This document shows, piece after piece, positions 7,985-8,300 of a DNA stretch of 64,000 nucleotides; the stretch's first letter is position 1; every line of letters begins with the position of its first letter. The translations under genes and the position numbers were made by a program. Below the pieces are notes generated by a model. That model saw only the letters and a program-made list of their open reading frames with translations, searched no databases and was not told the origin of the DNA. The stretch is from Escherichia coli (lineage in GTDB: Bacteria > Pseudomonadota > Gammaproteobacteria > Enterobacterales > Enterobacteriaceae): the NCBI RefSeq assembly GCF_013315695.1, contig NZ_CP054353.1; one strand, given 5' to 3'.

Positions 7985-8300
7985 TCAGGTATACACCGCA
8001 GCGCCTGATGCGACGCTGTTGTGTCTTATCAGGCCTACGAGTTCAGTGCTGTGTGTAGGTCGGATAAGGCGCTCACGCCGCATCCGACAATAACAGCATT
8101 GCCTGATGCGACGCTGCCGCGTCTTATCAGGCCTACGAGTTCGGTGCTGTGTAGGTCGGATAAGGCGTTCATGCCGCATCCGACAATAACAGCATTGCCT
8201 GATGCGACGCTTGCGCGTCTTATCAGGCCTACGAGTTCAGTGCTGTGTAGGTCGGATAAGGCGTTCACGCCGCATCCGGCAATAACAGCCTTGCCTGACG
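7985..8300. repeat. Three tandem REP/BIME-type palindromic units (about 98 bp each)
   Basis: Repeated gcctgatgcgacgct...cttatcaggcctac units with internal dyad symmetry in the holC-pepA intergenic region. Confidence 0.75.

Follow-up and report, generated by a model that had tools for sequence, protein, structure and literature searches.

The repeat array between pepA and holC in this Escherichia coli chromosome is very probably a BIME-2 cluster, in which three tandem 96-nt units, each pairing one z2 REP with one y REP, fill the 353-bp spacer. It is a three-unit allele of a BIME-2 that has already been catalogued, and as such it is already known; Table DS3 of Sutormin et al. 2018 (PMC6379681; Topo-seq) has the K-12 interval under the entry 'BIMEs2 ... 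holC-pepA'. A sequence-only reading of this DNA had described an ordinary extragenic palindrome cluster, and that description is supported by the six y and z2 REPs recovered here and by the existing K-12 entry. Our analysis refines it, in that the "three units" of the earlier reading are six REPs of two types. The array is one locus of a dispersed, non-coding repeat family.

Results

The window (the whole 64-kb stretch of DNA that was analysed) derives from the E. coli chromosome. According to the ORF list, valS (4652-7507), holC (7507-7950) and pepA (8304-9815) all lie on the - strand, where pepA, holC and valS follow one another head to tail, and lptF begins at 10082 on the + strand, beyond pepA. 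The holC product scored 336 bits with NF004345, an NCBIfam equivalog whose cut-off is 281. The upstream gene, pepA, encodes leucyl aminopeptidase and matched NCBIfam NF002072 with 1093 bits against a cut-off of 826. RefSeq names in matching genomes agree with both assignments. The spacer is measured from the holC start codon (7950) to the pepA stop codon (8306-8304). As is characteristic of REPs, the whole array (8003-8298) is extragenic and lies between holC and pepA, and the first full REP begins 23 nt downstream of the pepA stop codon.

Tandem Repeats Finder reported an array at 8003-8298 with a period of 96, 3.1 copies, 93% matches and a score of 504, which bears out the earlier claim of three tandem REP/BIME units between holC and pepA. 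A repeat search delimited two complete 96-nt units, 8052-8147 and 8148-8243, which are 95% identical and have partial copies on both sides. The coordinates first given for the array, 7985-8300, located it properly but were slightly loose, since the full REPs span 8003-8280.

The REPs of E. coli are imperfect palindromes of 30-40 nt that carry a 5' GTAG tetranucleotide, located 5' of the palindrome foot, and they fall into types y, z1 and z2 (Ton-Hoang 2012, PMC3333891). BIME-2 elements consist of a z2 plus a y REP in inverse orientation, present in multiple tandem copies with short linkers; the copies are well conserved within a locus, whereas the linkers differ from one locus to another and the number of units from strain to strain (PMC3333891). 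Pattern searches, among them a fuzzy regular expression that allowed for loops of variable length, recovered six REPs in the array, with 0.00 z2 and y pattern matches expected in shuffled sequence. These form three BIME-2 units of one z2-type and one y-type REP each, with alternating orientations. The z2-type REPs, whose GTAG head is on the - strand, follow the pattern GCCTGATGCGACGC-loop-GCGTCTTATCAGGCCTAC and fit the query GCCTGATGCGACGCTGGCGCGTCTTATCAGGCCTACG quoted in PMC11208160. In the y-type REPs the GTAG head is on the + strand and the pattern is GTAGGTCGGATAAGGCG-loop-GCCGCATCCGAC. The comparison with REP consensus sequences that the sequence-only reading had proposed thus gave a match to both y and z2 REPs, with the conserved GTAG head present in 6/6. 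The order z2(-), y(+) is strictly maintained three times, the inverse arrangement expected of BIME-2, and the 3.1 copies with 93% matches show the tandem repetition, short linkers and within-locus conservation of this class. Head-to-head linkers are 14-16 nt long (e.g. GAGTTCAGTGCTGT) and tail-to-tail linkers are 12 nt long (AATAACAGCATT).

Read from the holC side, the segment that varies between alleles has its edge at 7981..8002, with allele divergence beginning at 7981 in the alignment. Its first nine positions, CGCATCAGG (7981-7989), are complementary to the left arm of z2 REP no. 1 and to GCCTGACGC at the pepA end. The first z2-type REP (8003..8038, - strand; hairpin -8.3 kcal/mol, z -4.8) is joined by the 16-nt head-to-head linker GAGTTCAGTGCTGTGT (8039..8054) to the first y-type REP (8055..8088, + strand; -11.8 kcal/mol, z -4.9), which has an AA/GC internal mismatch, as do the y REPs generally. 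The 12-nt tail-to-tail linker AATAACAGCATT follows at 8089..8100 and corresponds, in the alignment to the Rfam naRNA4 model, to that model's unpaired linker. In the second unit, z2-type REP no. 2 (8101..8136, - strand; -11.3 kcal/mol, z -4.7), the 14-nt head-to-head linker GAGTTCGGTGCTGT (8137..8150) and y-type REP no. 2 (8151..8184, + strand; -9.6 kcal/mol, z -4.9) are followed by another copy of AATAACAGCATT (8185..8196). The third unit contains z2-type REP no. 3 (8197..8232, - strand; -11.3 kcal/mol, z -5.2), whose sequence is identical to that of the REP325 z2 REPs, the head-to-head linker GAGTTCAGTGCTGT (8233..8246) and y-type REP no. 3 (8247..8280, + strand; -8.6 kcal/mol, z -2.8). The linkers were placed by sequence and unit alignment. 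The foot pair of the y REPs is T-A in units 1 and 2 and T/G instead of T/A in unit 3. A partial fourth copy, composed of a last linker copy AATAACAGCCTT and a truncated z2 left arm GCCTGACGCAA, occupies 8281..8303, with the Tandem Repeats Finder array ending at 8298. The truncated arm itself (8293-8303) adjoins the pepA stop codon.

REP dyad symmetry, the feature whose absence would have told against the earlier reading, is present throughout: 6/6 of the REPs fold as imperfect hairpins. The six elements are 34 or 36 nt long and fold at -8.3 to -11.8 kcal/mol, with z values of -2.8 to -5.2 against shuffled controls. The stretch 7978-8014 also folds (-9.9 kcal/mol, z -3.6). As a - strand RNA, the whole spacer reaches -162.8 kcal/mol (z -8.6), and the outermost helix of this fold pairs its two ends, CGCATCAGG with the truncated z2 left arm.

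GC-rich hairpins directly downstream of the pepA stop codon are what an intrinsic (Rho-independent) terminator ending the pepA transcript would provide. However, such a terminator is very unlikely here. On neither strand does a T run follow any of the hairpins, and the scan of both strands found 0 intrinsic-terminator-like sites in the spacer against a mean of 2.0 in shuffled sequences. Most REPs are also described as having no U tract (bioRxiv 10.64898/2026.03.23.713779). With no terminator-like site in the spacer, this candidate was rejected in favor of BIME-2 hairpins. A sequence scan for promoter-like sites in the spacer found none.

A close described relative of the array is REP325 in the yjdM-yjdN spacer, whose y-l-z2 unit is naRNA4 (PMC4550694). 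Both are tandem y-linker-z2 arrays between two co-directional genes. In addition to the identical z2 REP no. 3, the y REPs are nearly identical, differing at 3-4/34 positions, and the pepA-holC array matches the Rfam model above its gathering score. In contrast, REP325 in MG1655 comprises 5.8 copies with a period of 100 nt, compared with 3.1 copies and 96 nt at pepA-holC, and both of its linkers are unrelated in sequence to those found here. Its orientation relative to transcription of the flanking genes is the reverse of that at pepA-holC, and its y foot pair is C-G, whereas that of pepA-holC is T-A. Both sides of this pair have changed and the hairpin is kept.

Two + strand segments exceed the gathering score of Rfam naRNA4 (RF02564, 59.5): 8058..8133, covering y no. 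1, z2 no. 2 and the linker between them (77.9 bits), and 8154..8229, covering y no. 2, z2 no. 3 and the linker between them (82.2 bits). On the - strand the scores are 55.7 and 51.9 bits, under that threshold. Since REP325 RNAs were reported to bind HU and condense DNA (Qian et al. 2015, PMC4550694), the two matches might be read as a sign that the array encodes small RNAs of the naRNA4 kind, which would bind HU and condense the nucleoid. We give this reading little chance of being correct. The Rfam model describes a generic y-l-z2 BIME-2 unit, so a match is uninformative on whether a dedicated RNA gene exists. The strand that passes the threshold is antisense to pepA, holC and valS, and the spacer it would be transcribed from has no promoter-like site. 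Moreover, a 2026 preprint, whose authors include the senior author of the 2015 paper, reports that neither REP325 nor naRNA4 affects nucleoid compaction, and finds no stable HU-DNA-RNA complex (bioRxiv 10.64898/2026.03.23.713779). By sequence, the naRNA4 match reflects repeat-unit homology. The Rfam call at pepA-holC therefore means no more than 'BIME-2 unit', and the label is potentially misleading.

The distribution of the array among 5426 complete E. coli genomes also agrees with a BIME-2. A 501-nt query across the locus had matching places in 5425/5426 genomes, with a median of at least 36 per genome, as expected of a highly repeated and dispersed element. The BIME allele was found with at least 80% coverage in 4010/5426 genomes, and 1406 genomes carry a 103-bp alternative element; together the two alleles account for nearly all of the 5426. 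One to three units are thus present in ~74% of genomes and an unrelated, structured 103-bp repeat in ~26%, which indicates that the BIME is dispensable at this locus.

The number of units was obtained from a query of the unique flanks, which finds one place in virtually every genome, so that the distance between flanks gives the size of the insert. Unit counts come from an evenly spaced sample of 60 records; as this sample is not random and the collection is biased, the following proportions are rough. An insert of 323-325 bp, corresponding to three units as in the window, was present in 25/60 records. Two units (~224-228 bp) were present in 12/60 and one unit (~129-132 bp), as in K-12 W3110, in 8/60. 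The different, 103-bp element was found in 14/60 records, and in 1/60 the flanks were split apart, indicating a disrupted locus. MG1655 has the same one-unit allele as W3110. In alignments the three-, two- and one-unit alleles differ by whole units, so a single locus shows the variable unit number (1, 2 or 3) that characterizes BIME-2. The K-12 holC-pepA BIME-2 has the same flanks, the same y and z2 REPs, the same alternating orientation and short linkers as the array described here. It differs in having one unit rather than the three of the window, which is ordinary unit-number variation.

E. coli alleles differ over 7981-8303, and the 103-bp element replaces exactly this segment. It has no similarity to REPs. 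Its core is CCCTCTCCCTTAGGGAGAGGGTTAGGGTGAGGG, and it is strongly structured as RNA (z -5.7). At blastn sensitivity there are ~6 related copies per genome, which makes it another small dispersed repeat. We presume a resemblance to the boxC repeat. In strain WB61 (NZ_CP020025.1 583579-583803), the 103-bp element matches in two pieces across 225 bp. This match suggests that the 103-bp element may likewise be duplicated at the locus.

The array also contains open reading frames, which the sequence-only reading had put down to the repeats. ORFs 8021..8320 (+), 8035..8268 (-) and 7985..8179 (-) do exist, with 99, 77 and 64 codons, and it could be asked whether one or more of them encode real small proteins. 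We judge this highly improbable. Because 96 nt equals 32 codons and 3/6 frames of a unit are stop-free, open frames run through the array automatically, whatever its content. None of the three ORFs has a Pfam match at the cut-off or an NCBIfam match. A product would change in length by 32 codons per unit between strains, and the ORFs are missing in ~26% of genomes. In every record listed, the only RefSeq genes under the match are pepA and holC. The coding interpretation was consequently rejected, and the ORFs are artefactual, being stop-free repeat frames with no protein-family match and no RefSeq gene.

Finally, the evenly spaced palindromic repeats of ~34-36 nt do recall a CRISPR-like spacer-repeat array, as the sequence-only reading had cautioned, but this has next to no probability, because CRISPR arrays combine identical repeats with unique spacers and here the "spacers" are repeated along with the repeats at 93-95% identity, two different palindromes alternate in opposite orientation, the palindromes belong to the dispersed family described above, and the window does not contain the E. 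coli type I-E CRISPR repeat; the CRISPR reading was rejected.

Two further properties of the locus come from comparison with published work. Gyrase cleavage sites are over-represented in BIME-2, mainly within y REPs, and the K-12 holC-pepA interval has 2 such sites in the Cfx set, 1 in RifCfx, 0 in Micro and 2 in Oxo (PMC6379681). According to these published Topo-seq data, the one-unit K-12 version is cut by DNA gyrase in vivo.

The second property concerns IS621, an IS110-family element with a bridge RNA-guided recombinase. The natural IS621 target sequence is given by Durrant et al. (PMC11208160). This target, ATCAGGCCTAC, has three exact sites in the 64-kb window. All are in the array, one per z2 REP, at 8028-8038, 8126-8136 and 8222-8232, inside z2 REPs no. 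1, 2 and 3, respectively. In strain CUVET20-416, the holC-proximal z2 REP of the pepA-holC BIME has an IS621 insertion at its CT. The element lies at 2549-3829 of the extracted locus, and its insertion matches the natural target (PMC11208160).

Discussion

Our studies place the pepA-holC array among the BIME-2 elements, and their value is mainly one of annotation: three spurious ORFs are explained and a CRISPR array is ruled out. The locus is mildly notable for its two-allele spacer (BIME-2 versus an unrelated structured repeat), its natural IS621 insertion and its naRNA4 label.

By analogy with other BIMEs, the number of units probably changes by recombination between near-identical units. 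Gain and loss of units may be promoted by the REP-associated transposase TnpA-REP (RAYT), which cleaves and recombines BIMEs in vitro (PMC3333891).

From the order of the genes we infer a pepA-holC-valS operon structure. A literature search for holC, pepA and valS promoters returned no relevant result. Since the genes are head to tail and no promoter- or terminator-like site was detected in the spacer, pepA transcripts probably carry six hairpins. REP325 stabilizes the upstream yjdM transcript and, in a partly Rho-dependent manner, attenuates yjdN (bioRxiv 10.64898/2026.03.23.713779). By analogy, six stable hairpins on transcripts leaving pepA would block 3'-to-5' exonucleases and so stabilize pepA mRNA, and they could partly attenuate read-through into holC-valS. 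Co-transcription, stabilization and attenuation at pepA-holC are all suggested by this parallel and by gene order, and should be read with three points from the same preprint in mind: what REPs do depends strongly on their context, no Rho dependence was detected for fragments with two to four hairpins, and neither pepA nor holC is mentioned (bioRxiv 10.64898/2026.03.23.713779). Two features of the locus also weigh against this functional reading: the array is dispensable, being missing from ~26% of genomes, and it is oriented relative to transcription in the opposite sense to REP325.

In both the BIME and the 103-bp allele, an element that folds strongly comes immediately after the pepA stop codon. 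The effects on translation that have been reported for REPs require a REP within ~15 nt of the stop codon. With the first full REP 23 nt past the pepA stop codon, an effect of this kind is unlikely at pepA-holC.

One could propose that the pepA-holC spacer holds alternative 3'-UTR modules (0, 1, 2 or 3 BIME-2 units or the 103-bp hairpin repeat), that the number of units is a heritable dial, and that a folding element after the pepA stop codon in both alleles reflects selection and not chance. We consider this proposal unlikely. If true, the balance between pepA expression and read-through into holC, which encodes the replisome chi subunit, and into the essential valS would depend on the number of units. 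The natural series available at this locus (1, 2 and 3 units, a different repeat and an IS621 insertion) could be used to test the effects of REP number, including those on mRNA stability, read-through and gyrase activity beside an essential gene.

Several minor observations were made elsewhere in the window. Rfam Ysr276 ('Yersinia sRNA 276', antisense type) matches positions 9063-9257 (+) with 180 bits against a gathering score of 100. The match is antisense and within the pepA coding sequence, and it probably reflects the conservation of pepA rather than a separate RNA gene. At 12369-12404, between lptG (end 12264) and a convergent yjgR-like ORF, there is a single isolated z2-like REP whose head reads GTGG rather than GTAG; the TGA stop codon of the ORF (12399-12401) falls inside this REP. 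A tRNA-Leu (anticodon CAA, leuX-like) is present at 15271-15355 (+). The BIME region of strain MCJCHV-1 is 100% identical to that of the window. In MCJCHV-1, the idn genes separate pepA from the tRNA-Leu, which is ~5 kb more distant from it than in the window and is followed by an integrase and IS elements; given the different tRNA position and idn genes, the window strain differs from MCJCHV-1 around tRNA-Leu.
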